64,000 nucleotides of DNA from Candidatus Microgenomates bacterium (GTDB lineage: Bacteria; Patescibacteriota; Microgenomatia; UBA8517; JACQJR01), in contig JACQJR010000002.1 in assembly GCA_016204995.1 (NCBI GenBank), forward strand, positions 96,551 to 160,550, read 5' to 3'. Of this stretch, positions 4,045 through 63,395 are shown piece by piece. The notes beneath the pieces were generated by a model. The model worked only from the letters and a program-made list of their open reading frames with translations. It was not told the DNA's origin and ran no database searches. Numbering within the stretch: position 1 is the first letter of the stretch; every line of letters starts with the position of its first letter. Made by a program: the position numbers and the translations under genes.

Positions 4045-4644
4045 TTAGTATGAGATAATTTTTACTTTACCAGAATCAAATGTTACTTCATAGCCGCTTT
4101 CCGTTTTTAGCTGCACCCGATAAAGATTGGCTTTACCATCGGAACGCAACTTTAACAAATCCGACTCCAGGGTGGTAAAAGTTTGACTATTGGTAGACAT
4201 TACAGAGCTTTCTACAGGTTCATTGCGGGTGACATTAAATAACCTCACCCAGGCCCGGCCGTTGCCATCCTTGAGTTTGATGGTAGCATACCAACGAGTG
4301 TCCTTCACACTGCCATATTCGCGAGTATTGAGATAAAAATCGGTAATTGATAAATCCTCCCAATCCAGTTTGATAGAAGAACCGGCGCCGGAAATTGTCA
4401 CATAATTTACTTTGGTGGATGATGTTTTGGGTAATTCAACTGTCGGCTGGGCTGACAGAGTGGCAATGGCTCGCGAGACCGCTTCGGTAATTTTGTTGGC
4501 GCAATCTTCGCCGCAAGTCTCTATCGCTTTCTCCGTGTTGTTTTGCGCCAGCGGCACACCGGGAACTATGGTCCCTATCTTGGAGAATAACCAAAAACCA
4601 CCGATAGCTAAAATAAGAGTCAGCAGGAAAATTTTAATGATCAT
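4045..4644 (-). CDS. hypothetical secreted/membrane-anchored protein
   Basis: N-terminal TM/signal anchor. No recognisable domain. Confidence 0.4.
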   Translation of the reverse strand: MIIKIFLLTLILAIGGFWLFSKIGTIVPGVPLAQNNTEKAIETCGEDCANKITEAVSRAIATLSAQPTVELPKTSSTKVNYVTISGAGSSIKLDWEDLSITDFYLNTREYGSVKDTRWYATIKLKDGNGRAWVRLFNVTRNEPVESSVMSTNSQTFTTLESDLLKLRSDGKANLYRVQLKTESGYEVTFDSGKVKIISY

Positions 4645-6149
4645 ATGGCAGTCTTCTTTTTTAATTTTACCCTAGCTTTCCTAAGCCAAGATTTCTTAAT
4701 CTTATATCCATCCTGTTTGTCTTCTACCGCATAGCCCATCTGTTCTAACGCCTGGCGGATTTTATCTGACTCTTTCCACTTTCCTTCTTTCCTTAAGACC
4801 TCTCTTTTTTCCACCAATTCCGTAATTTCTACTGGTAATTCTAATGATTTACCTAAATATTTTTCTAATCCTAACCCTAGAATTTTATCCATCTTTAAAA
4901 TATCCTCCCCATTTCCTTTTTTCACCGCTTCCCAAAAAACGGCCATAGCTTGTGGCACTCCTAAGTCATTATTAAGAGCCTCCATAAATTTATCCATCAT
5001 TCCACTACCACTACTTTTTACATCTCTTACTGTTACTCTTAAATTATTTAATGCATTTTGAGCTGCTTGCAAACTATCCCAGGTAAAATTTAATTTATCC
5101 CGGTAGTGAGCAGTTAAAAATAAATAGCGCAAAGCCAAAGGGTCAAAACCACGTTGTTTAATATCTGCTAAAGTGTAGACATTACCCAAACTTTTACTCA
5201 TCTTTTGCCCATCAACTAAAACAAATTCATTATGTAACCAAAATTTGACAAATTCTTTCCCTGTTGCCGCTTCCGATTGGGCAATTTCGTTAGTGTGGTG
5301 TATTGGAATATGATCAATCCCGCCAGTATGGATATCTATAGTTCGACTTTGCTCACCACGAAAATTACCATTTTCGAATGCATCTCCTAAATATTTCATG
5401 GCCATGGCCGAGCATTCAATATGCCAACCCGGAAAACCATAAGTTTGTCTAAACTCTGTAGGAACCCTACTCCAATTCTCTCTTTTAACAAGCTGGCCCG
5501 CGAAAGGACCCTCAAACCACCAATTCATTTGTCGCATTGGCAAATCAATCTTTGCTGGCTCAAATTTCCACAGAGCAAAGTCAGTCGGATTTTTTTTACC
5601 TTCTACCATTTCTACCCTAACCCCAGGTTGAATACCATCCTTACCGCCGGCGAGTTGTCCGTAATTGGAAAACTGTGAAGTATCAAAATAAATTCCATAA
5701 TTAGTTTTATAAGTAAAGCCTTTTTCTTCCAATGTTTTAATTAATTGAATCATTTCTTGAATGTTATCCGTAGCCCGCACTAAAGTTGGCTGCTCAATAT
5801 TTAAAGCATCCAAGTCTGCTAAAAATTCAGCCGTATATTTTTTTGCAATCTCCCAGACTGAAATTCTTTCCTTATTTGCCTCATATTCCAACTTATCTTG
5901 TCCTAATCTTGGCTCTTCTCCTTCCTCAAATAAATGACCCACATCAGTAATGTTCATCACATTCATTACTTTATAACCATTAATCTCTAATGTTTTCCTT
6001 AAAATATCTACAAAAACATAAGCTCGCAGATTACCAATGTGAGGACTGGAGTAAACCGTCGGGCCACAGGAATAAATTCCTACTTTGCTATCTTCTAGCG
6101 TAACGAATTCCTCCAACTTCCTTGTTTTGGTATTATAGAGCCTTATCAT
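4641..6149 (-). CDS. cysS: cysteinyl-tRNA synthetase
   Basis: HIGN class I motif (PHIGNLRAY), KMSKS (KMSKSLGN), CysS zinc-site cysteines. Confidence 0.9.
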   Translation of the reverse strand: MIRLYNTKTRKLEEFVTLEDSKVGIYSCGPTVYSSPHIGNLRAYVFVDILRKTLEINGYKVMNVMNITDVGHLFEEGEEPRLGQDKLEYEANKERISVWEIAKKYTAEFLADLDALNIEQPTLVRATDNIQEMIQLIKTLEEKGFTYKTNYGIYFDTSQFSNYGQLAGGKDGIQPGVRVEMVEGKKNPTDFALWKFEPAKIDLPMRQMNWWFEGPFAGQLVKRENWSRVPTEFRQTYGFPGWHIECSAMAMKYLGDAFENGNFRGEQSRTIDIHTGGIDHIPIHHTNEIAQSEAATGKEFVKFWLHNEFVLVDGQKMSKSLGNVYTLADIKQRGFDPLALRYLFLTAHYRDKLNFTWDSLQAAQNALNNLRVTVRDVKSSGSGMMDKFMEALNNDLGVPQAMAVFWEAVKKGNGEDILKMDKILGLGLEKYLGKSLELPVEITELVEKREVLRKEGKWKESDKIRQALEQMGYAVEDKQDGYKIKKSWLRKARVKLKKKTAI

Positions 6150-33637: not shown

Positions 33638-33843
33638 TGACAAAAACTTTCCGACCTGCGCTTCGCCGAAGACTCAGGCAAGGCGAGTCGCAAATAAAAT
33701 GTCAAGTCTAAATTAGCTTTTAGACTTAGTTGAATTGTCTTGGTCAAATTATACTACTAGAGGCTTAAGAAGCAAATTTTGCCAAGCCCGCCAAAAGCTA
33801 CGCATTTTTGCGGGTCCGCCATAATACGAAGTTTTAGGCGGAG

Positions 33844-33936
33844 AAAAGGCACCTTGGGGAGATATAAAAAATTTAAATCGCGTTTTGCGACAAATTTATA
33901 TATCACCTTACGGTGCCTTTAAGTATTCAGTTGTGG
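33844..33936 (+). repeat. Element Y copy A (structured repeat AAAAAGGCACC...AAATATCACC..GGTGCCTTT + TATTCAGTTGTGG)
   Basis: Outer stem GGCACC/GGTGCC encloses an internal AT-rich stem and a TCGC-gtttt-GCGA hairpin. About 85% identical to copy E at 58149. Confidence 0.6.
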
Positions 33937-33957
33937 AAAGGTTAGGAAATGGTAACC

Positions 33958-34341
33958 CTAGTTAATGTACGGCCCGAACAGGTCTTTGATTTCCGGAGGA
34001 AGCTCGCAATCGCGCCAGCTGATGATCTGAGGACCGTAAGCCCTATCATGTCCGCAAACAATCCTCTTAGCTCTGCATACTCCAGATTTTACTTCATCCG
34101 GATGACTCCGCCACGTGCGAATTTCCACGAAAACCTGGTCCTGCCACCTGACTCCTAGGTTATGACAAATGGCTCGGATGACACTTTCGGCGGCGTTGGT
34201 GGTATTGGGCGCCTTTCTGGGAGGTGTTAAACCAGTCAGGTAAATTTTATTACCCTCCCGGTAATATGCTGCCGTGCCTTTGCTGCCATGAGGACAGAGG
34301 TAATCTACCTCGGAAAGTTGCCGCAGCATTTGGCCGACCAT
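33958..34341 (-). CDS. N-acetylmuramoyl-L-alanine amidase-like (phage T7-lysozyme-like) fragment, GC-rich
   Basis: About 50% GC versus a ~38% background. Strong RBS GAGGAGG. C-terminal H..(8-9)..C spacing and SWRDCELP resemble the Amidase_2 zinc site, but the N-terminal His region is missing, so it is possibly truncated. Confidence 0.3.
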   Translation of the reverse strand: MVGQMLRQLSEVDYLCPHGSKGTAAYYREGNKIYLTGLTPPRKAPNTTNAAESVIRAICHNLGVRWQDQVFVEIRTWRSHPDEVKSGVCRAKRIVCGHDRAYGPQIISWRDCELPPEIKDLFGPYIN

Positions 34342-34583
34342 GGTTCCTCCTCGTTAGCCCACCAAAAGGGGCTAAAAAAATTTTGACCAGTTAATGTCGC
34401 CCCAGAGAAAGAGAACCGCAATCCCCACTACCGCCAGAAAAAACTCCTTCACCTGCCTTTTCCACAATCTGTTAAAGTGCGCTACTCTAAACAAAAAACA
34501 GGCTTGCCTCGCGCCTGCGTCTATTTATAGTGCTACTACAAGGTAATTGTATCAAAAGCAAAATCAAAAAACAATTTGGCAAA

Positions 34584-34638
34584 GAAAAAGGCACCCCCAA
34601 AATGATTTGCTAAAAGCAAAATCACCTCAAGGGTGCCT
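34584..34638 (+). repeat. Element Y copy B
   Basis: AAAAAGGCACC..TTTGCTaaaAGCAAA hairpin..AAAATCACC..GGTGCC. Lies 3' of minus-strand ORF 34693..35034. Confidence 0.5.
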
Positions 34639-34692
34639 AAATAAGTCCACCTGACGGGAAAAACGAGTCATGCGCGGCTCCTCCTTAGTTTT

Positions 34693-35034
34693 TCAACTCA
34701 ACTTCCGAAGCACCTCCAGTGGAACAGCCTCCTTGCTGCAAGGATACCAGTCAGCCACCCACGGGTATAGATCAAGCGGGGAGTATAACTCCAGGCTTAA
34801 CCTGTTTGCTGCCACTCGCTGTGGTGGTACCTGACCATAGCCAGGAGGAAAATCAACCTCAATAAAGGTTACTTCTCTCCAGTTGAGCTGGGCTACAGAG
34901 CAGATACCTAGGACAATACCCTCTTGGCTCTGGCCGTCACGATGACGAAAGAAAACCAGCTGGTCTGGCCAAATGGTGTACTTGACACCTGCCAGTGGAT
35001 CCCGCTCCGGTAGCGCACGACGACTCCTGGTCAT
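34693..35034 (-). CDS. hypothetical protein (GC-rich, likely foreign)
   Basis: 113-aa ORF with RBS GGAGGG. Higher GC than the host genes. Confidence 0.4.
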   Translation of the reverse strand: MTRSRRALPERDPLAGVKYTIWPDQLVFFRHRDGQSQEGIVLGICSVAQLNWREVTFIEVDFPPGYGQVPPQRVAANRLSLELYSPLDLYPWVADWYPCSKEAVPLEVLRKLS

Positions 35035-35181
35035 TTTTCCCTCCTTCAGGAAAAACTAAAATACTTTTCCGCCAAGTTAAAGAGCAAACAGACCCAAAAA
35101 GGCTTGCTTTGTTGCCTTCGGCTGTTCTTAATTCCTAACCCATAGTTTATCAAACTATAAGCCAAAAAGCAAATTGGCCAA

Positions 35182-35240
35182 GAAAAAGCGCCGGTTGGAT
35201 CAATCTTGCAGATTATGCAAAATATCACCTTCCGGCGCTG
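35182..35240 (+). repeat. Element Y copy G (compensatory variant GCGCCGG/CCGGCGC)
   Basis: Same architecture, but the outer stem changes from GGCACC/GGTGCC to GCGCCGG/CCGGCGC. Inner TTGCA-gatta-TGCAA hairpin and the AAAATATCACC motif are conserved. Confidence 0.5.
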
Positions 35241-35424
35241 TATCCTTGAGACTTAATTGTACGGTGGTAAAACGAGATGCTTCTCCCCCTCCAGTTTCCA
35301 TAGTATTTTGTGGTTCCTCTGGAGATTTGCTAATAGCAAAACCACCAACCAGTTAAGTCTAACTGCCATAACTCCTCCTTTTAATGTTTTCTGATTACCA
35401 CTTGAACTGCGGCCCAGAGAGGTG

Positions 35425-35610
35425 TTACCACCACGACAAAATACTGCCTAGCATAAACAAACCAGTTACCATGAGTAACCCGGACACGATCGCCCCAAGG
35501 GGCCCCCAATTTCGAAGAGCATCGACCAAAAGAAGACCTCCCAGTACCACTAAAACAATAGCCATAGCGGTTACTCCAAAGGGATTCATTTTCTGTTCCT
35601 TCCTGTACAA
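35425..35610 (-). CDS. small membrane protein (GC-rich)
   Basis: 61 aa with 2 TM helices. RBS AGGAAGG. Confidence 0.4.
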   Translation of the reverse strand: MYRKEQKMNPFGVTAMAIVLVVLGGLLLVDALRNWGPLGAIVSGLLMVTGLFMLGSILSWW

Positions 35611-35639
35611 CTAATGTTAAGGTACCGCCCTCCGTAACT

Positions 35640-35700
35640 TAGCTTTCACCTTACCTACTATTCGTAGCGCGACTCAAGCTGCGTTTGCTGACGGGCTATG
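35640..35700 (+). repeat. Element X copy 4 (degenerate) upstream of the DUF3800 gene
   Basis: CTAC-tattc-GTAG hairpin followed by GCGCGACTCAAGCTGCG. Aligns with the X consensus, but the hairpin arms are swapped. Confidence 0.35.
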
Positions 35701-35841
35701 CTTGTTTTAGACCCAAAGATAGATCGGCTTTTGACCTCCTTTAAACCTAAATTATGCTTAATTAGTATTGTACCACTTAACTATGAGATAAGCAAATTTG
35801 AAGTTATTGCAATAAGAGAATAAACGACAGTAAAATTAAAC

Positions 35842-36456
35842 ATGAAATTTGTTATTATTGATGAAAGTGGACGTTTATTTGACCCCAATGATAGATTTCT
35901 AATATTTGCAGCAGTTGTCACTGATACACTTGTTAACCTTGATAAAATCATACCTTCTGTTAAGAAAACACTACCCAGAAAGATAAAAATTGCAGAAATT
36001 AAATTCTCTAAAACTGGAGATAGAACCAGATTGAAAATACTTAAAGAAATTCACAGCAGGAAACTAAAACTATTTATTCTGGTAATTGATAAGGAAGGAC
36101 GAAAAATTAAAGATACTCCTGAAAATTATTCACTGTTAATAGCTACTCTGCTGAAGAAAATTATGAAGCGATACTCTACCACTTCACACATTTTAATAGA
36201 TAAACATTTCACTTGGGTGACTCAAAGAGAGAAATTCAATAAAAATATCCAGAAAATTTTGGCCCGTTCCTTATTTATTGAACATCTTGATAGCCAACAA
36301 AATACCATTGTTTCTTTGCCTGATTTCGTAGCAGGCGCAATCCGTGTTAGTTATACTAAAAACCAAAAATATTTCGCAGAAATAATAAATGATTTAATTG
36401 AAGAACAAATAGTTACAACCTGGAGGAAAATTAAACAAAAAATGGTAAAAGCTTAA
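35842..36456 (+). CDS. DUF3800-family protein
   Basis: N-terminal IIDESG motif and C-terminal SLPDFVAGAIR (DUF3800 'QLADFVAG' signature). AT-rich. Confidence 0.55.
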   Translation: MKFVIIDESGRLFDPNDRFLIFAAVVTDTLVNLDKIIPSVKKTLPRKIKIAEIKFSKTGDRTRLKILKEIHSRKLKLFILVIDKEGRKIKDTPENYSLLIATLLKKIMKRYSTTSHILIDKHFTWVTQREKFNKNIQKILARSLFIEHLDSQQNTIVSLPDFVAGAIRVSYTKNQKYFAEIINDLIEEQIVTTWRKIKQKMVKA

Positions 36457-36550: not shown

Positions 36551-36620
36551 AAAAAAGGCACCTTGGGGTAGATAAATTAGAGAATAAGTTATCTGTTCTC
36601 GGTTTTCAGTGTTCAGAATT
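36551..36620 (+). repeat. Element Y copy C (partial/degenerate)
   Basis: AAGCAAATTGGCCAAGAAAAAAGGCACCTTGGGGTAGAT 5' part matches copies A and E. The 3' half is degenerate (TTCAGTGTTCAG). Confidence 0.4.
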
Positions 36621-36655
36621 AGGTTTATCAGTAATCAGTTTACCAGTCAGTTATA

Positions 36656-37030
36656 CTAACTAAACTTTTTCCAAGTAGAGTGAAGCTTATTTAGCCTCCG
36701 GGAAAGTACCTTATATCTATCAATTAAGTCATCACAATCCTCTACTTTAATCCGAGTGAATGTTTTAGCTACGATTTTAATCTCCCGCAGATGGGTAATA
36801 ACTTCATCGGAAGAGCCAATGGCCATGGAAAGGAAGCGACAAAATTCGCGTGGAGAAGTTTTCTTACCGAATCCTTCGGCAATTTGAGGTGCAATCTTTT
36901 CCGCGGCTTCATTTAACTGATATCTCAATCTTTTGTAGATCGGTGGTAAGAGATTTGTTAAACTATAAACTGGATCAAGTAATTCTAAAGATAAATTGTA
37001 AACTTCCAAGTCTGTTACATCCTTAATCAT
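36656..37030 (-). CDS. four-helix-bundle protein (TIGR02436 / 23S rRNA intervening-sequence protein family)
   Basis: LEVYNLSLEL..LRYQLNEAAEKIAPQIAEGFGKKTSPREFCRFLSMAIGSSDEV matches the family pattern (QL.RAA.SI..NIAEG..R.S..EF..FL.IA.GS..E). 65 nt downstream of the ATPase, same strand. Confidence 0.65.
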   Translation of the reverse strand: MIKDVTDLEVYNLSLELLDPVYSLTNLLPPIYKRLRYQLNEAAEKIAPQIAEGFGKKTSPREFCRFLSMAIGSSDEVITHLREIKIVAKTFTRIKVEDCDDLIDRYKVLSRRLNKLHSTWKKFS

Positions 37031-37095
37031 ACTGATAAACAGAAAAACTGGTAAACTATTATCTGATAACTGACACCCGAAAACCGATCACTGAC

Positions 37096-39261
37096 TCATT
37101 CCTTTACCTTCCGGCCATAGCGTTCTCGAGATAAACGTTTGATCTTATCTTTATTCTCATTTTTCAGGCTCGGCAAGGGCAAAGTGTTGGCTGGGAAAGG
37201 CGAAGAGGTCATATTATCAATTGACAGCCGGGCAATAATTTCATATTTACCCAAAGCCACTAAATCATTTTCCGTATATAATTCGCCAAATTCTTTAGTC
37301 AAAATCCGGGCATCCGTCGCCCCTACCACGAATGATAAAAGCGTGCCGGCATTGCCAAAAATAGCCTTCTGAATCCCCTCTTCCAGTTGGCCAATATACT
37401 GATTGGCTAGGGTGAGCGACAGCCGATATTTGCGCGCTTCGGATAAGATTTTAATAAAGGAGCTTGTGGCAAAATTTTGAAATTCATCCACATAGAGGAA
37501 AAAATCCCGCCGTTCTTCTTCTTGAGTAAATGAACGGTTCATAGCGGCCAGCTGTAGTTGAGTAATAATCATCGCCCCCAGCAAAGAAGCATTATCCTCG
37601 CCCAATTTGCCCTGCGATAAGTTCAAAATTAAAATTTTACCTTCGTTCATAATCTGCTCAAGGTCAATCGTAGACTTGGGATTACCGACAATATTTCTGA
37701 TCATCTTGGAAGAAACGAACTGGCCAACCTTATTTTGAATTGGCGAAATGGCTTCAGTACGAAGGTTATCAGACATTCTTTCAAATTCCTTTTGCCAGAA
37801 GTTTTTCAAAACCGGGTCCTGCAAACGATCCACCACCCGCTCCCGGAAATTCCGGTCATTAAGCAAATTTAAAATATCCACTAAAGTACTACCTTCTACT
37901 TCCAAAAGGGTCAGAATGACATTGCGCAAAATATATTCCAGCCGTGGCCCCCAGCTCTCCCGATACAATTTGTAAAAAATGGAGATAATGCCCGAGGCCA
38001 CCAAATCTTTATGCTGGCGATTTTTAATTTCTAAAACGTTTAGAGAAAAAGGCCTTTCACTGTCAAAAGGTTCCAGATAAACTACGTCTGACACCCGCCG
38101 GGCCGGAATATAATCTAGAATGACCTCGGAGAGATCACCGTGCGGGTCAATAATGCCCACCCCTCGGCCCTTTCTAATATCATCAATCGCCATATTGGCA
38201 ATTAAAGTAGATTTGCCGGTGCCGGTTTTGCCGACAATATAGACGTGGCGGCGGCGATCAATTGTTTTGATACCAAAAATAGTTTCCTGATTTCTAAAGT
38301 TAGTCTTGGCAAAAAAGTTAACATCCTGCTTTTGCTCATCAGTCATAGCACTGGCTGCCGGCAAATTCTGCGGTGGCTCACCCAGTAAAGTCTTGCCCCA
38401 GGCAATATTTTTGATATTAGCCAGAAGTATGGCTGGCGGATGCCACAGACTGGCCAGTTCTTGGGCATTGAGAATTTGCTGCTGTCTTTCCAAGAAAGCC
38501 ACTTTTCGCTCGCGGATGCGAGCCAACAACCTGCCTTTGCGCAGTATTGGTCGCTTAAAAACTAACTGGTTGCCGCCGCCCAAAGAGAAACTGCCAAAAG
38601 TGCCGGCCAGATTTTGTAAAATTGGCTTGGTCGGCTGGCTATCAGAACCCGCCGCAATCCGAATCACCGCCCGCCCCCCTTGAAAAGAAGTTTTGCGTTC
38701 AATTAATATCCGCTGCGGATTTTGGCTGTAGCGATCAGAAGTCGGATCGTAAGTTTGGGTTTTAAGACTGGCCGTAGCTTTAGCTTGCCAGGGAAAAGTA
38801 GCCGGCGTCACAATAATTTGTACCATGATTTTAGTATCATTATCTTGCTTGGATAAAAAACCCAACAGTGAAGCCAAGGGGTCAACGTCGCGAAAATCCA
38901 AGTAGGTTTTAATCGGCAGATAGAAATAGGAGTTTAAGGCCAGCTCGCCTATTTCCAGATTTTTGGATTTCAAAACTTCAAAAAGGGGATCGGAGGTAGC
39001 GGCAATTTGAGCTTTGGGATAGGAAGAAGTGACTAAACTTTCCATGAAATTTTTGTGAGCATTAGTTGTAGTGACATAAAAATAAATAGTGGAATTAACG
39101 AGATAAATTTCAAAGCTAAAAGTTCCCTGCTTGGTAAACAGCCATTTCCAACCCGGCAAATACGGCCGCGATAAGACAGAGGCGAAGATTTGCGCGGCAC
39201 TTTCAGTAGGCGTCTCATCGTCTTTGGAAAGCTTAAGTTGAATATGGCTAAGCTGCGGCAT
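37096..39261 (-). CDS. FtsK/HerA/VirD4(T4CP)-superfamily P-loop ATPase, cytoplasmic (DUF87/type-IV-DNA-transfer-like)
   Basis: Walker A (GKTGTGKST), IIDPHGD motif, Walker B (FFLYVDEFQNF), arginine-finger/sensor region (ARKYRLSLTLANQ). About 330-aa N-terminal domain of unknown function. No TM segments. Confidence 0.55.
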   Translation of the reverse strand: MPQLSHIQLKLSKDDETPTESAAQIFASVLSRPYLPGWKWLFTKQGTFSFEIYLVNSTIYFYVTTTNAHKNFMESLVTSSYPKAQIAATSDPLFEVLKSKNLEIGELALNSYFYLPIKTYLDFRDVDPLASLLGFLSKQDNDTKIMVQIIVTPATFPWQAKATASLKTQTYDPTSDRYSQNPQRILIERKTSFQGGRAVIRIAAGSDSQPTKPILQNLAGTFGSFSLGGGNQLVFKRPILRKGRLLARIRERKVAFLERQQQILNAQELASLWHPPAILLANIKNIAWGKTLLGEPPQNLPAASAMTDEQKQDVNFFAKTNFRNQETIFGIKTIDRRRHVYIVGKTGTGKSTLIANMAIDDIRKGRGVGIIDPHGDLSEVILDYIPARRVSDVVYLEPFDSERPFSLNVLEIKNRQHKDLVASGIISIFYKLYRESWGPRLEYILRNVILTLLEVEGSTLVDILNLLNDRNFRERVVDRLQDPVLKNFWQKEFERMSDNLRTEAISPIQNKVGQFVSSKMIRNIVGNPKSTIDLEQIMNEGKILILNLSQGKLGEDNASLLGAMIITQLQLAAMNRSFTQEEERRDFFLYVDEFQNFATSSFIKILSEARKYRLSLTLANQYIGQLEEGIQKAIFGNAGTLLSFVVGATDARILTKEFGELYTENDLVALGKYEIIARLSIDNMTSSPFPANTLPLPSLKNENKDKIKRLSRERYGRKVKE

Positions 39262-39329
39262 TAACTACATTATATTACATTTTTAACAAGCTTGTCTCGC
39301 CGAAGTCCGGCGTAGACGGACGAAGGCGG

Positions 39330-39441
39330 AAAAAAAGGCACCCCGCGGGAAATATCTTGCGGTTAAGCAAAAATATCACCTTTGAGGTGCCTTGATACTA
39401 TTTTGAGCTTGCGAAAAACAAGCTTCGCTTATTCAGTTGTG
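39330..39441 (+). repeat. Element Y copy D
   Basis: AAAAAAAGGCACC...CTTGC-ggtta-GCAA...AAAATATCACC-tttga-GGTGCCTT, then an extra AGCTTG/CAAGCT hairpin, then TATTCAGTTGTG. Lies 3' of minus ORF 39429..39647. Confidence 0.5.
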
Positions 39442-39647
39442 ATGGAAGATTGTATCTCCCTTATCTTTTTGTCCAGCCGACTAAGACAGTCATTGGGCTT
39501 CTCGAGAGGGCATTCGCCGTAAAGGTGGTTCACCCACTCCATGTCATCCCGATCCTTCAACGAGATTACACTTACCTCCTTGACTGCGTAACCAGCAATC
39601 TCATCGACCTCCTTTTCTGTCAGACAAGCCTCAACTACCGAAGCCAT
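39429..39647 (-). CDS. hypothetical small acidic protein (GC-rich)
   Basis: 72 aa, RBS GGGAGGG. Confidence 0.35.
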   Translation of the reverse strand: MASVVEACLTEKEVDEIAGYAVKEVSVISLKDRDDMEWVNHLYGECPLEKPNDCLSRLDKKIREIQSSITTE

Positions 39648-39685
39648 AATTCCCTCCCTTACGAATACACCGAAACCTTTTCCTA

Positions 39686-39898
39686 CTAGGAACTACTCAC
39701 CAGCAACTTCTCTGCCGCAACTTTCTCCTTATTAGATTTCTGTAGGGCGGCAAATAGGAAGCTGAACGGAGTATGCCGCAGATACACGTAGTATTGGGCC
39801 GTATCCATGTCTTCAGTGAGGCCCCATTCGGTCCTCAACAGATGCTGCATGGCTGCCTGACAGCGGGGTTGATGCGAACAATACCAGTACACGTTCAA
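39686..39898 (-). CDS. hypothetical small protein (GC-rich)
   Basis: 70-aa ORF, TTG start with an adjacent AAAGGAGG. The start is uncertain. Confidence 0.25.
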   Translation of the reverse strand: MNVYWYCSHQPRCQAAMQHLLRTEWGLTEDMDTAQYYVYLRHTPFSFLFAALQKSNKEKVAAEKLLVSSS

Positions 39899-40149
39899 CC
39901 TCCTTTTCGACCAGATAAAGCCTTAGGGCATATTTACCCCGAACTCCTCCTAATCAGGCTTGCGGCTCGCTTGGTGAGCTGGAAAAACGTGATGGCCAGT
40001 ACCGCAATGACAAATATCACCGTCAGTATCGCTATGGACAGGATCACCAGGACCACGAAGAGGAAACCCATCTCCATGTTCAATATCAAATCCTCCAGCA
40101 TTTTTCTCCTTACAACTGAAATGTCAACGTGCCTTTGACCTACCTAATC

Positions 40150-40230
40150 TTACCTTTCGTCTTAGTAGATTTCTACTGCGACTCAAGGAGTGATTTATGG
40201 CGGGTCTGCATCACAAATTGCGATGCAATT
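40150..40230 (+). repeat. Element X copy 3 upstream of def
   Basis: AGTAG-attt-CTACT hairpin (compensatory relative to copy 1), GCGACTCAAGGAG..ATGGCGGGT, then a hairpin GCATC..GATGC with different sequence but the same structure. Confidence 0.45.
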
Positions 40231-40365
40231 TATTCTTTGAAAAAGCGCTTTTAAGACTTGCTTATTGCCCTAAGCCTCTTTTCCCAAGTTATGCTATTAT
40301 ATTACAAACTATGGGATTATTCAAAAAATTAGCAATTAGCAAGCAAAATTGGTAAAATACATGCT

Positions 40366-41004: not shown

Positions 41005-41367
41005 ATGAGCGATTTTACCAAATTAAAAATATGGCAGAAATCTCACGAATTATCATTGGAGGTTTATCATCTTACTGCAAAACTACCTAAAGAAGAAACT
41101 TTCGGCTTAATGTCACAGTTACGCCGAGCAGCAGTATCAGTAGAATCTAATATTGCCGAGGGCGAATCAAGATTTAGTAGTAAGGATAAACTAAATTTCT
41201 TTATCCAAAGTCGCGCATCTATCGGCGAGGTCCAGACACAATTACTTTTAGTAGCTGATTTATATCAGCAATTAAAGAGTAAAGCTTTACAATTAAAAGA
41301 AGAATATACTAATCTTTATAAACAAATAAATAGTCTTGTTTCTTATAGAAGAAAAAACGATTTATGA
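41005..41367 (+). CDS. four-helix-bundle protein (23S rRNA IVS protein family)
   Basis: KLKIWQKSHELSLEVYHLT..QLRRAAVSVESNIAEGESRFS family pattern. Inserted between def and fmt. Confidence 0.65.
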   Translation: MSDFTKLKIWQKSHELSLEVYHLTAKLPKEETFGLMSQLRRAAVSVESNIAEGESRFSSKDKLNFFIQSRASIGEVQTQLLLVADLYQQLKSKALQLKEEYTNLYKQINSLVSYRRKNDL

Positions 41368-44897: not shown

Positions 44898-44969
44898 GCC
44901 TAGGTGGCTCAGTGGTAGAGCACGTTCTTGGTAAGAACGGGGTCGCGGGTTCGATTCCCGCTCTAGGCT
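44898..44969 (+). tRNA. tRNA-Thr (anticodon GGU)
   Basis: Acceptor GCCTAGG/TCTAGGC (one G-U), D-arm GCTC-AGTGGTA-GAGC, anticodon stem CGTTC/GAACG with loop TTGGTAA, T-arm GCGGG-TTCGATT-CCCGC. Confidence 0.7.
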
Positions 44970-44993
44970 CATAATATAATGATGAGTTGAAGG

Positions 44994-45365
44994 TTGGGGG
45001 TTATGAGCGAGAATAATGGATTTAGATTTGAAGAATTACAAGTTTACCAAAGAGCTTTAAATTTTGCGAATGAAGTTTATGAAATCAGCAACCAATGGCC
45101 CAGAGAACATGTTTTTTCTTTAACAGATCAATTAAGAAGAGCATCACTCTCTGTAGCCTTAAATATTGCTGAAGGAGCAAGTAGAACTAAATTAGAATTT
45201 AAAAGATTTATAACTATTAGTAGGGGTTCCTGTCATGAATGCATCCCTATTATAGAAATAGCTTTTAGGCAAAAATTAATTGATATAAAAAGAAAGGAGG
45301 TATGGTTAAACGAGGTTACAACATTATCTAAAATGTTAAGTAAACTTAAGAGTTCAATAGTTTAA
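44994..45365 (+). CDS. four-helix-bundle protein (23S rRNA IVS protein family)
   Basis: ELQVYQRALNFANEVYEIS..QLRRASLSVALNIAEGASR family pattern. Inserted between tRNA-Thr and rpmG, flanked by 9-mer tandem repeats. Confidence 0.65.
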   Translation: MGVMSENNGFRFEELQVYQRALNFANEVYEISNQWPREHVFSLTDQLRRASLSVALNIAEGASRTKLEFKRFITISRGSCHECIPIIEIAFRQKLIDIKRKEVWLNEVTTLSKMLSKLKSSIV

Positions 45366-45580: not shown

Positions 45581-45652
45581 TAGGGGTGTGGTGAAATGGT
45601 ATCACAGCAGTCTCCAAAACTGCTTTTTCAGGTTCGAATCCTGACACCCCTG
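45581..45652 (+). tRNA. tRNA-Trp (anticodon CCA)
   Basis: Acceptor AGGGGTG/CACCCCT, D-arm GTGA-AATGGTA-TCAC, anticodon stem GCAGT/ACTGC with loop CTCCAAA, T-arm TCAGG-TTCGAAT-CCTGA. Confidence 0.7.
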
Positions 45653-45780
45653 CTACGTTCAGCTCGCTATTAACATGGCTCTTGAACGTAGTAAACCACA
45701 ATTTTATCTGTTATTTGAGGATCTATTTGAAATATTGCGAGCATGAACCGTAGCCTGCTACAAATCAGCTCATTTCATTC

Positions 45781-58148: not shown

Positions 58149-58250
58149 AAAAAAGGCACCTTGGGGTAGATATAAAAAATTTAAATCGCGGTTATGTGAC
58201 CAATTTATATATCACCTTTAGGTGCCTTTAAGAACATATTCAGTTGTGGG
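58149..58250 (+). repeat. Element Y copy E
   Basis: Near-identical to copy A. Lies 3' of minus-strand gene 58269..58667. Confidence 0.6.
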
Positions 58251-63280: not shown

Positions 63281-63300
63281 AAGCCTTATTGTAGCTAAGA

Positions 63301-63395
63301 AAAAAGGCACCGTCCAGAGATAAAATTGCTTATAAAGCAAAATATCACCTTTTGGTGCCTTTGCGACCCATATTCGGTTGTGTATTCAGTTGTAA
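63301..63395 (+). repeat. Element Y copy F
   Basis: AAAAAAGGCACC..TTGCTT-ata-AAGCAA..AAAATATCACC-tttt-GGTGCCTTT, then ATATTCGGTTGTG and TATTCAGTTGT tails. A GC-rich minus-strand micro-ORF follows. Confidence 0.5.

Follow-up and report, generated by a model that had tools for sequence, protein, structure and literature searches.

A chromosomal, probably orphan VirD4-type coupling ATPase and a putative four-helix-bundle cassette behind it in a Candidatus Microgenomates genome

The stretch of DNA analyzed here, called the window throughout, covers 64,000 nucleotides (64 kb) of a Candidatus Microgenomates bacterium of the Patescibacteria (assembly GCA_016204995.1, contig JACQJR010000002.1, positions 96,551 to 160,550). 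On its minus strand lies a gene for a soluble ATPase of 721 amino acids (37096..39261), which its open reading frame (ORF), Pfam matches, homologs and synteny identify as similar to the VirD4-type coupling proteins of type IV secretion systems (T4SS); behind it lies the gene of a four-helix-bundle (4HB) protein of 124 amino acids (36656..37030, minus strand). The original prediction, which was made from the sequence alone, took the two genes to be one module with a possible role in anti-phage defense or DNA translocation, and the coordinates, common strand and gap of 65 nt that it gave are borne out by our ORF call. We consider it probable, instead, that the 721-residue protein is a chromosomal orphan VirD4-type type IV coupling protein (T4CP) of a kind widespread in Patescibacteria, and that the 4HB gene belongs to an unrelated cassette.

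The C-terminal motor domain of the ATPase (37096..38271, minus strand) is RecA-like, and its Walker A (residues 344-352) and Walker B (591-597) are set apart by an inserted helical region, as seen from motifs, Pfam, an AlphaFold2 (AF2) model and Foldseek. The motifs named in the original prediction are in place, with GKTGTGKST at residue 344, DPHGD at 372, VDEFQNF at 591 and ARKYR at 609, and the sensor at 618 reads LANQ where a LATQ-like sequence had been given (ARKYR...LANQ, residues 609-621). Both Walker motifs are intact and invariant across an alignment of 39 Microgenomates sequences, and the AF2 model places helices at residues 415-525, the region of the insertion, with a pLDDT of 70-90. 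The Pfam matches above cut-offs are TrwB_AAD_bind (2.2e-12; 47 bits against a cut-off of 20.5, spanning residues 336-628), DUF87 (1.8e-9) and TraG-D_C (1.1e-5; 25.8 bits, cut-off 22), and T4SS-DNA_transf scores 20.1 bits, exactly at its cut-off. No transmembrane (TM) helix is predicted and the protein should be soluble, since its peak Kyte-Doolittle mean over 19 residues is merely 1.46 and is located in the motor domain, not at the N-terminus. The protein cannot be longer and anchored, as there is an in-frame stop two codons upstream of its ATG. The earlier description of a soluble motor of the VirD4/HerA/FtsK superfamily with an N-domain of about 330 residues, as opposed to a classical membrane-anchored coupling protein, thus agrees with the Pfam matches, the motifs and the hydropathy scan.

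More than 7,800 homologs of the ATPase were scored, and the best 120 of these are full-length Microgenomates proteins of about 720 residues that are 66-77% identical to it, the named ones among them carrying the NCBI title 'type IV secretion system DNA-binding domain-containing protein'. The mean column identity in the 39-sequence alignment is 74%, with many positions of the N-domain invariant. In the closest syntenic relative (locus L001) an ATPase 73% identical to ours occupies the same chromosomal position (MreB-Wzy ... def-fmt), and the flanking genes common to both are MreB (77% identity), a Wzy-like gene (45%), def (59%) and fmt (57%). Between def and Wzy the ATPase is the sole gene that keeps its place in this relative; the small genes between the shared anchors all differ there, and homologs of them were found in none of the fetched loci. 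Because the ATPase is conserved between shared anchors while the small genes differ, its pattern, as far as sequence comparison goes, is that of a vertically inherited core gene within a variable patch and not that of a mobile element. The gene has a GC content of 0.441, the mean for the window being 0.404 (sd 0.022 across windows of equal size), and 4.5% of equal-sized windows reach such a value. The slightly higher GC content noted in the original prediction therefore stands for the ATPase; the 4HB gene, at 0.371, is below the mean. A promoter-like site, GAGACA-18-TATAAT (39269..39298, minus strand), was picked up by a consensus scan with 10 of 12 positions matching and is a consensus match only. 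Its -10 box (TATAAT) ends 7 nt before the ATG and no Shine-Dalgarno sequence is present, which suggests a leaderless or near-leaderless mRNA. The small ORFs beside the ATPase, in contrast, have strong Shine-Dalgarno sites.

The N-terminal domain (NTD; residues 1-330, 38272..39261 on the minus strand) has a folded core of approximately residues 1-275. AF2 modeled residues 1-330 with a pLDDT of 83.5 and a pTM of 0.81, and the 12 best Foldseek matches of this model are all chains of TrwK, the VirB4 of plasmid R388 (E 2.8e-5 to 6.6e-4, TMq 0.40-0.47). When the full-length model is used TrwK again comes first, and DotL (6sz9_A) is fourth (E 1.2e-4). The predicted structure is an alpha/beta fold like that of the VirB4 NTD. 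The original prediction had recognized nothing in this half of the protein, and this holds for the Pfam library that we searched, apparently one without the PF26449 model since it returned no such match even for a protein (P0004) whose precomputed entry lists it, but it does not hold for the relatives at 66-77% identity, whose precomputed Pfam strings list PF26449 (DUF8128) first, together with TrwB_AAD_bind. The domain is thus known to Pfam, if under no more than the label of a domain of unknown function (DUF), and a literature search returned no paper mentioning DUF8128. In relatives at 38-42% identity the N-domain is preceded by a TM helix, and the proteins, of 820-1160 residues, are often tandem paralogs (two adjacent TM-anchored full-length copies in L058, L061, L062, L064, L065 and L067). 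In about eight loci it is a separate ORF of 416-494 residues directly upstream of an ATPase-only ORF of 528-595 residues (L074, L075, L081, L083, L084, L085, L088 and L090).

The link to type IV secretion comes from relatives. Gene neighborhoods were compared in 92 loci, the window and 91 fetched ones, of which 79 extend 600 nt or more beyond the ATPase on its downstream side; the 80 loci behind the neighborhood statistics were obtained from a metagenome scan with the family alignment, and a single-protein scan of genome contigs gave 5 loci. In four of the 92 (L020, L021, L025 and L048), with an ATPase that is 52-54% identical and also has no TM helix, the gene lies next to, and diverges from, a PrgI-like gene, a gene for a protein of about 220 residues and a VirB4-like gene. 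The PrgI-like neighbor matches PF12666 with an E-value of 1.8e-5 and 25.6 bits, a narrow miss of the cut-off of 27 bits; the VirB4-like neighbor matches P-loop_TraG (1.2e-24) and AAA_10 (1e-15). In the other 88 loci the ATPase is far from T4SS genes. A tblastn search against plasmids found homologs in Bacillaceae that are collinear end to end, with 26% identity over query residues 20-709 (E 4e-51) and no TM helix, and the N-domain by itself also retrieves them (E 1e-7 to 4e-6). On two different plasmids the homolog is the first gene of an operon, followed by Replic_Relax ... conjugal transfer protein - TcpE - VirB4-like - conjugal transfer protein, and the VirB4-like gene of these operons matches AAA_10 at 3e-116. 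Judged by this gene order, the Bacillaceae homologs occupy the coupling-protein slot of a transfer module. Full-length homology to conjugative-type proteins beside a relaxase gene, which the original prediction had named as speaking against its two-gene idea, is thus what was found. A published survey (PMC12102498, Microb Genom 2025) gives 5,713 VirD4-like T4CPs across 2,918 genomes of Patescibacteria, or approximately two per genome, with just 148 of them near virB4 and with relaxases in only 103 genomes.

Taking the protein as a coupling ATPase, it would form hexamers and use ATP to recruit a substrate, either DNA or protein, and feed it into a monoderm-type T4SS encoded elsewhere in the genome. 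The NTDs of VirB4 are described as joining the protomers of each dimer, embedding in the inner membrane and contacting VirB3 and VirB8 (review, PMC12857230), and because of these contacts we infer that the motor could dock on the T4SS platform through its N-domain. The VirB4-like N-domain would then replace the membrane anchor and hold the ATPase to a membrane platform of VirB3(PrgI)/VirB4/VirB8-like proteins. A broader form of this proposal can be put forward only tentatively, and we would not bet on it. It holds that the DUF8128-type coupling ATPases are a distinct and undescribed class of T4CP, in which the place of the anchor is taken by a VirB4-like N-domain that can be soluble, TM-tethered or a polypeptide of its own. 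Such proteins would be structural intermediates between VirB4 and VirD4, would dock on VirB3/VirB8 as VirB4 does and would, in Patescibacteria, have become a core T4SS component that does not depend on a relaxase.

The other half of our reading concerns the 4HB gene. Its product belongs to the TIGR02436 / PF05635 23S_rRNA_IVP family, as had been predicted, and it passes the curated cut-offs of both models (TIGR02436 55.6 bits, cut-off 24; PF05635 57 bits, cut-off 33.8). The gene is enclosed by an imperfect inverted repeat of about 50 nt with a core of 23 nt (arms approximately 36591-36647 and 37045-37095), and this repeat has its outer end at 37095, the base that immediately follows the ATPase stop; the whole, 36591..37095 on the minus strand, has the form of a self-contained cassette. 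The minimum free energy fold pairs both flanks of the gene, and the duplex has a dG of -49.1 kcal/mol compared to -18.2 +/- 3.7 (minimum -32) for shuffled arms. A 4HB gene on the same strand downstream of the ATPase was seen in only 2 of the 79 loci, the window and the distant relative L033, where the gap is 88 nt and the 4HB protein is of a different subfamily with no significant BLAST match to that of the window. In L001 the ortholog of the window 4HB protein (76% identical) is encoded on the other strand, 2.9 kb upstream of the ATPase. The two genes are therefore not co-conserved, and with this the two-gene system is largely refuted.

Inverted repeats also bracket 4HB genes elsewhere, in L033 (3685-3722 / 4128-4165, 38-nt arms), in L055 (271-288 / 674-691, 18 nt) and in L001 (4530-4556 / 5016-5042, 27 nt). 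The arms are unrelated in sequence between genomes, and many are built from short units in tandem such as (AAGAGTACC)n and (GTAATTG)n. In the intervening sequences (IVS) of rRNA genes, an ORF is likewise bracketed by a long inverted-repeat stem, and the repeats found here suggest that 4HB genes outside rRNA genes share a cassette or IVS-like architecture. The 4HB family has been reported in rRNA-gene intervening sequences, including those of the Candidate Phyla Radiation, and was called functionally uncharacterized. Two more 4HB genes are present in the window on the plus strand. One (41005-41367) separates def from fmt, two genes that are direct neighbors in L001, and there is an overlap of 4 nt between its stop and the start of fmt; the second (44994-45365) lies in a tRNA cluster between tRNA-Thr (44898-44970) and tRNA-Trp (45582-45653). 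The simplest reading of these arrangements is that the 4HB gene is part of a self-contained cassette which would insert at intergenic sites of unrelated genes. The copy behind the ATPase would have landed directly after its stop codon and would have no part in the ATPase machine. Since there is no terminator in the 65-nt gap the cassette is probably co-transcribed with the ATPase, and the bracketing stem could be cut from the transcript as in rRNA intervening sequences. The small gene was also considered as an accessory protein (Avd/bAvd) of a diversity-generating retroelement (DGR). The 4HB protein behind the ATPase gave no match to a bAvd profile at E<=0.01, and only the copy at 44994 had a match, a sub-threshold one (17.8 bits against 40). 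A scan of 33-41 kb showed no long direct repeat of the template/variable repeat (TR/VR) kind, a reverse transcriptase not having been searched for across the window.

Several observations weigh against the assignment of the ATPase to type IV secretion. Searches of the window by tblastn and hidden Markov models (HMM) found no VirB4, PrgI, TcpE, Replic_Relax relaxase or ATPase paralog, and because the window shows no T4SS gene the proposed role is an extrapolation from relatives. The NCBIfam models for TraD, CD1115 and CedD give weak matches only, far below their cut-offs (SXT_TraD 38.9 bits against 366, conju_CD1115 37.8 against 250), and the family profile has no match at E<=0.01 among PDB sequences. 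The C-terminal 120 residues of the full ATPase model are of low confidence. A link between the N-domain and VirB4 was also sought at the level of sequence and had to be given up, as hhalign against Patescibacterial VirB4-like proteins aligned the motor domains alone, and these weakly; the likeness of the N-domain to VirB4 is for this reason a structural one that rests on prediction. Finally, PMC12102498 reports for Ca. Southlakia epibionticum that its t4cp homologue is non-essential, whereas other T4SS genes are essential for epibiotic growth, and leaves exaptation open. The window ATPase family is a putative member of the T4CPs counted there.

The main rival to the T4SS-coupling reading follows from this last point. 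The ATPase could have been exapted to a function independent of any T4SS and have nothing but its ancestry in common with coupling proteins. It might, for instance, be a soluble DNA translocase of the FtsK/HerA-like kind that serves in chromosome handling, in DNA uptake or in some other housekeeping process. Such a history would suit a protein that is very strongly conserved, vertically inherited and free of a membrane anchor, as well as the distance from T4SS genes in the window and in 88 of the 92 loci, and the dispensable t4cp of S. epibionticum next to essential T4SS genes is what raised the idea in PMC12102498. However, that same source notes that even true conjugative systems often have their T4CP gene at a distance from virB4. 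In addition, a subset of close relatives is linked to PrgI and VirB4 genes, and the N-domain has, by prediction, the fold with which VirB4 contacts VirB3 and VirB8. On balance we think exaptation rather unlikely, though it deserves to be taken seriously.

A further alternative is that the ATPase serves as coupling protein for an integrated conjugative element or a plasmid remnant that still transfers DNA. The full-length homology to plasmid proteins encoded beside relaxase-type and transfer genes points in this direction, as does the DNA around the ATPase gene, which is GC-rich and strain-specific and contains a DUF3800 gene and small orphan ORFs. Yet no Replic_Relax, VirB4 or TcpE was detected in the window (an integrase was not searched for), and the ATPase keeps its chromosomal position in a relative whose flanking small genes all differ. 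That its sequence is 66-77% identical in many Microgenomates points to a core gene passed on vertically, and relaxases are rare in Patescibacteria according to PMC12102498. We consider this explanation very unlikely.

The two-gene anti-phage or DNA-translocation module has the least credit of all and we dismiss it, since what can be said for it, namely the short gap without a terminator between same-strand genes, the similar placement in L033 and a PADLOC match of mad8 to the ATPase domain (5.5e-18), is outweighed by an arrangement confined to 2 of 79 loci, one of them with a 4HB gene of another subfamily that has its own unrelated inverted repeats, by the relocated ortholog in L001, by the stem and the lower GC content (0.371 versus 0.441) of the 4HB gene, by the unrelated housekeeping genes next to the other two 4HB genes of the window and by neighbors that PADLOC does not recognize. 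The mad8 match is to the motor only (residues 325-673), the HerA models match only the P-loop, and PADLOC returned nothing for the 4HB protein, the DUF3800 protein or two flanking small ORFs. A defense system at this locus was rejected as a candidate on these results, and the anti-phage idea of the original prediction, for which a PADLOC check had been proposed, ends with this single ATPase-domain match.

The variable patch around the ATPase has features of its own. The stretches 33640-35840 and 39262-40365 that flank the gene are GC-rich (0.45) and densely filled with small ORFs on the minus strand, which have strong Shine-Dalgarno sites and hairpins between them. Some of these ORFs are predicted to encode membrane peptides (35425-35610, 39934-40101 and 34372-34494). 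The flanking small ORFs have no Pfam match and no homolog in 93 fetched loci, the syntenic relative included. The small hydrophobic ones were considered as VirB2-like pilins and rejected, with no Pfam match even at E<=1 and no homolog in the fetched loci. On the plus strand, at 35842-36456, a low-GC gene encodes a DUF3800 protein (PF12686, E 1.8e-5), which belongs to the variable patch and is convergent with the 4HB/ATPase unit.

A hairpin repeat occurs about seven times in the window, always in the same orientation (33844-33917, 34585-34637, 35186-35245 with a variant stem, 36551-36574 truncated, 39330-39391, 58149-58226 and 63300-63359). On the plus strand it reads as an A-run, GGCACC, a loop of 30-60 nt ending in ...ATATCACCTT, and then GGTGCC, and it is often preceded by GCAAATTGGCCAAG. 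The repeat is terminator-like because the minus strand shows the stem followed by a T-run; it has no Rfam match at the gathering threshold. By eye, the copies at 33844 and 58149 are closely similar over most of their approximately 75-78 nt. The copy at 39330..39391 (minus strand), a hairpin with a T-run, looks like a terminator between the ATPase gene and the small ORFs upstream of it. The truncated half-copy at 36551..36574 (minus strand), which over its first 24 nt is identical to the full copy at 58149-58226, is probably what the original prediction called 'Element Y'. It was also considered as the remnant of a terminator split by the 4HB cassette; the missing half was not found beyond the cassette, and this idea is unproven.

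Matches of the ATPase outside of bacterial chromosomes and plasmids were also seen. The phage family phrog_5156, of unknown function, matches residues 189-721 at 4e-79, and large Bacillus phages encode distant homologs with 20-27% identity by tblastn (CP-51, KF554508; phage G, JN638751; 0305phi8-36, EF583821). Some of these alignments, as that of CP-51, begin at about residue 195-202 and so take in part of the N-domain; that of phage G begins only at 342. The window ATPase is chromosomal and syntenic, so these matches are no evidence for a prophage, and a phage origin was rejected. Among the metagenome-assembled contigs, three with Microgenomates-type copies at 64-69% identity are titled 'uncultured Gammaproteobacteria bacterium' (L007, L009 and L011) and one is titled Limisphaerales (L010); these bins are probably mislabeled or contaminated.

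These results remove a false lead, as there is no new ATPase and 4HB defense or translocation system at this locus. They also show that 23S_rRNA_IVP genes in these genomes behave like stand-alone insertions flanked by inverted repeats, which are able to mimic operon partners. The ATPase family itself is already catalogued, and what is possibly new is the modeled VirB4-NTD-like fold of DUF8128 together with the soluble, anchored and split T4CP variants. The role of the abundant orphan T4CPs of Patescibacteria in this way gains handles that can be tested: the predicted VirB4-NTD fold, the coupling-slot architecture in Bacillaceae and the three forms of the protein. If a T4CP class with a VirB4-like N-domain were to be confirmed, it would be a core part of the T4SS that has been reported as essential for the epibiotic growth of S. 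epibionticum.

Comparison with known systems can help to place both genes. Defense systems that combine HerA or another ATPase with a partner (MADS, HerA-SIR2/DUF4297) differ from the locus in that the window ATPase has no full-length match to them, no system genes among the neighbors scanned and no conserved partner. The 4HB cassette is like the 23S rRNA intervening-sequence family in its protein and in having the ORF inside a long inverted-repeat stem, and it differs in being intergenic, behind a protein-coding gene and not within an rRNA gene. VirB4 (TrwK) resembles the ATPase in the predicted N-domain, whereas the window motor matches T4CP models in Pfam and not AAA_10, CagE_TrbE_VirB or P-loop_TraG. 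The NCBIfam models of VirB4 match it around the P-loop only (E 4e-4 to 3e-3), and in relatives genuine VirB4 genes are separate from the ATPase.

With VirD4-type T4CPs (TrwB of R388, DotL, PcfC) the protein has in common the RecA-like motor, Walker A and B, a helical insertion like the all-alpha domain, the Pfam matches and the Foldseek match to DotL, and some of its relatives adjoin VirB4/PrgI genes as well. These proteins have an N-terminal TM anchor, in place of which the window ATPase has a soluble domain of about 300 residues, predicted to be VirB4-NTD-like, and its gene, located on the chromosome with no relaxase close by, is apparently inherited as a core gene. The Patescibacteria T4CPs of PMC12102498 are VirD4-like, generally lie at a distance from virB4 and lack a relaxase, which fits both this locus and the tandem paralogs of distant relatives; the passages on them make no mention of an N-domain or of a soluble form. 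The Bacillaceae plasmid proteins, annotated as 'DUF87 domain-containing protein' (for example WP_121549396.1 on NZ_CP032854.1 and WP_338473401.1 on NZ_CP137637.1), differ by an acidic C-terminal tail of about 150 residues and by being embedded in a transfer operon where the window gene stands alone, and they share with it the N-domain and the motor together, with no TM helix.

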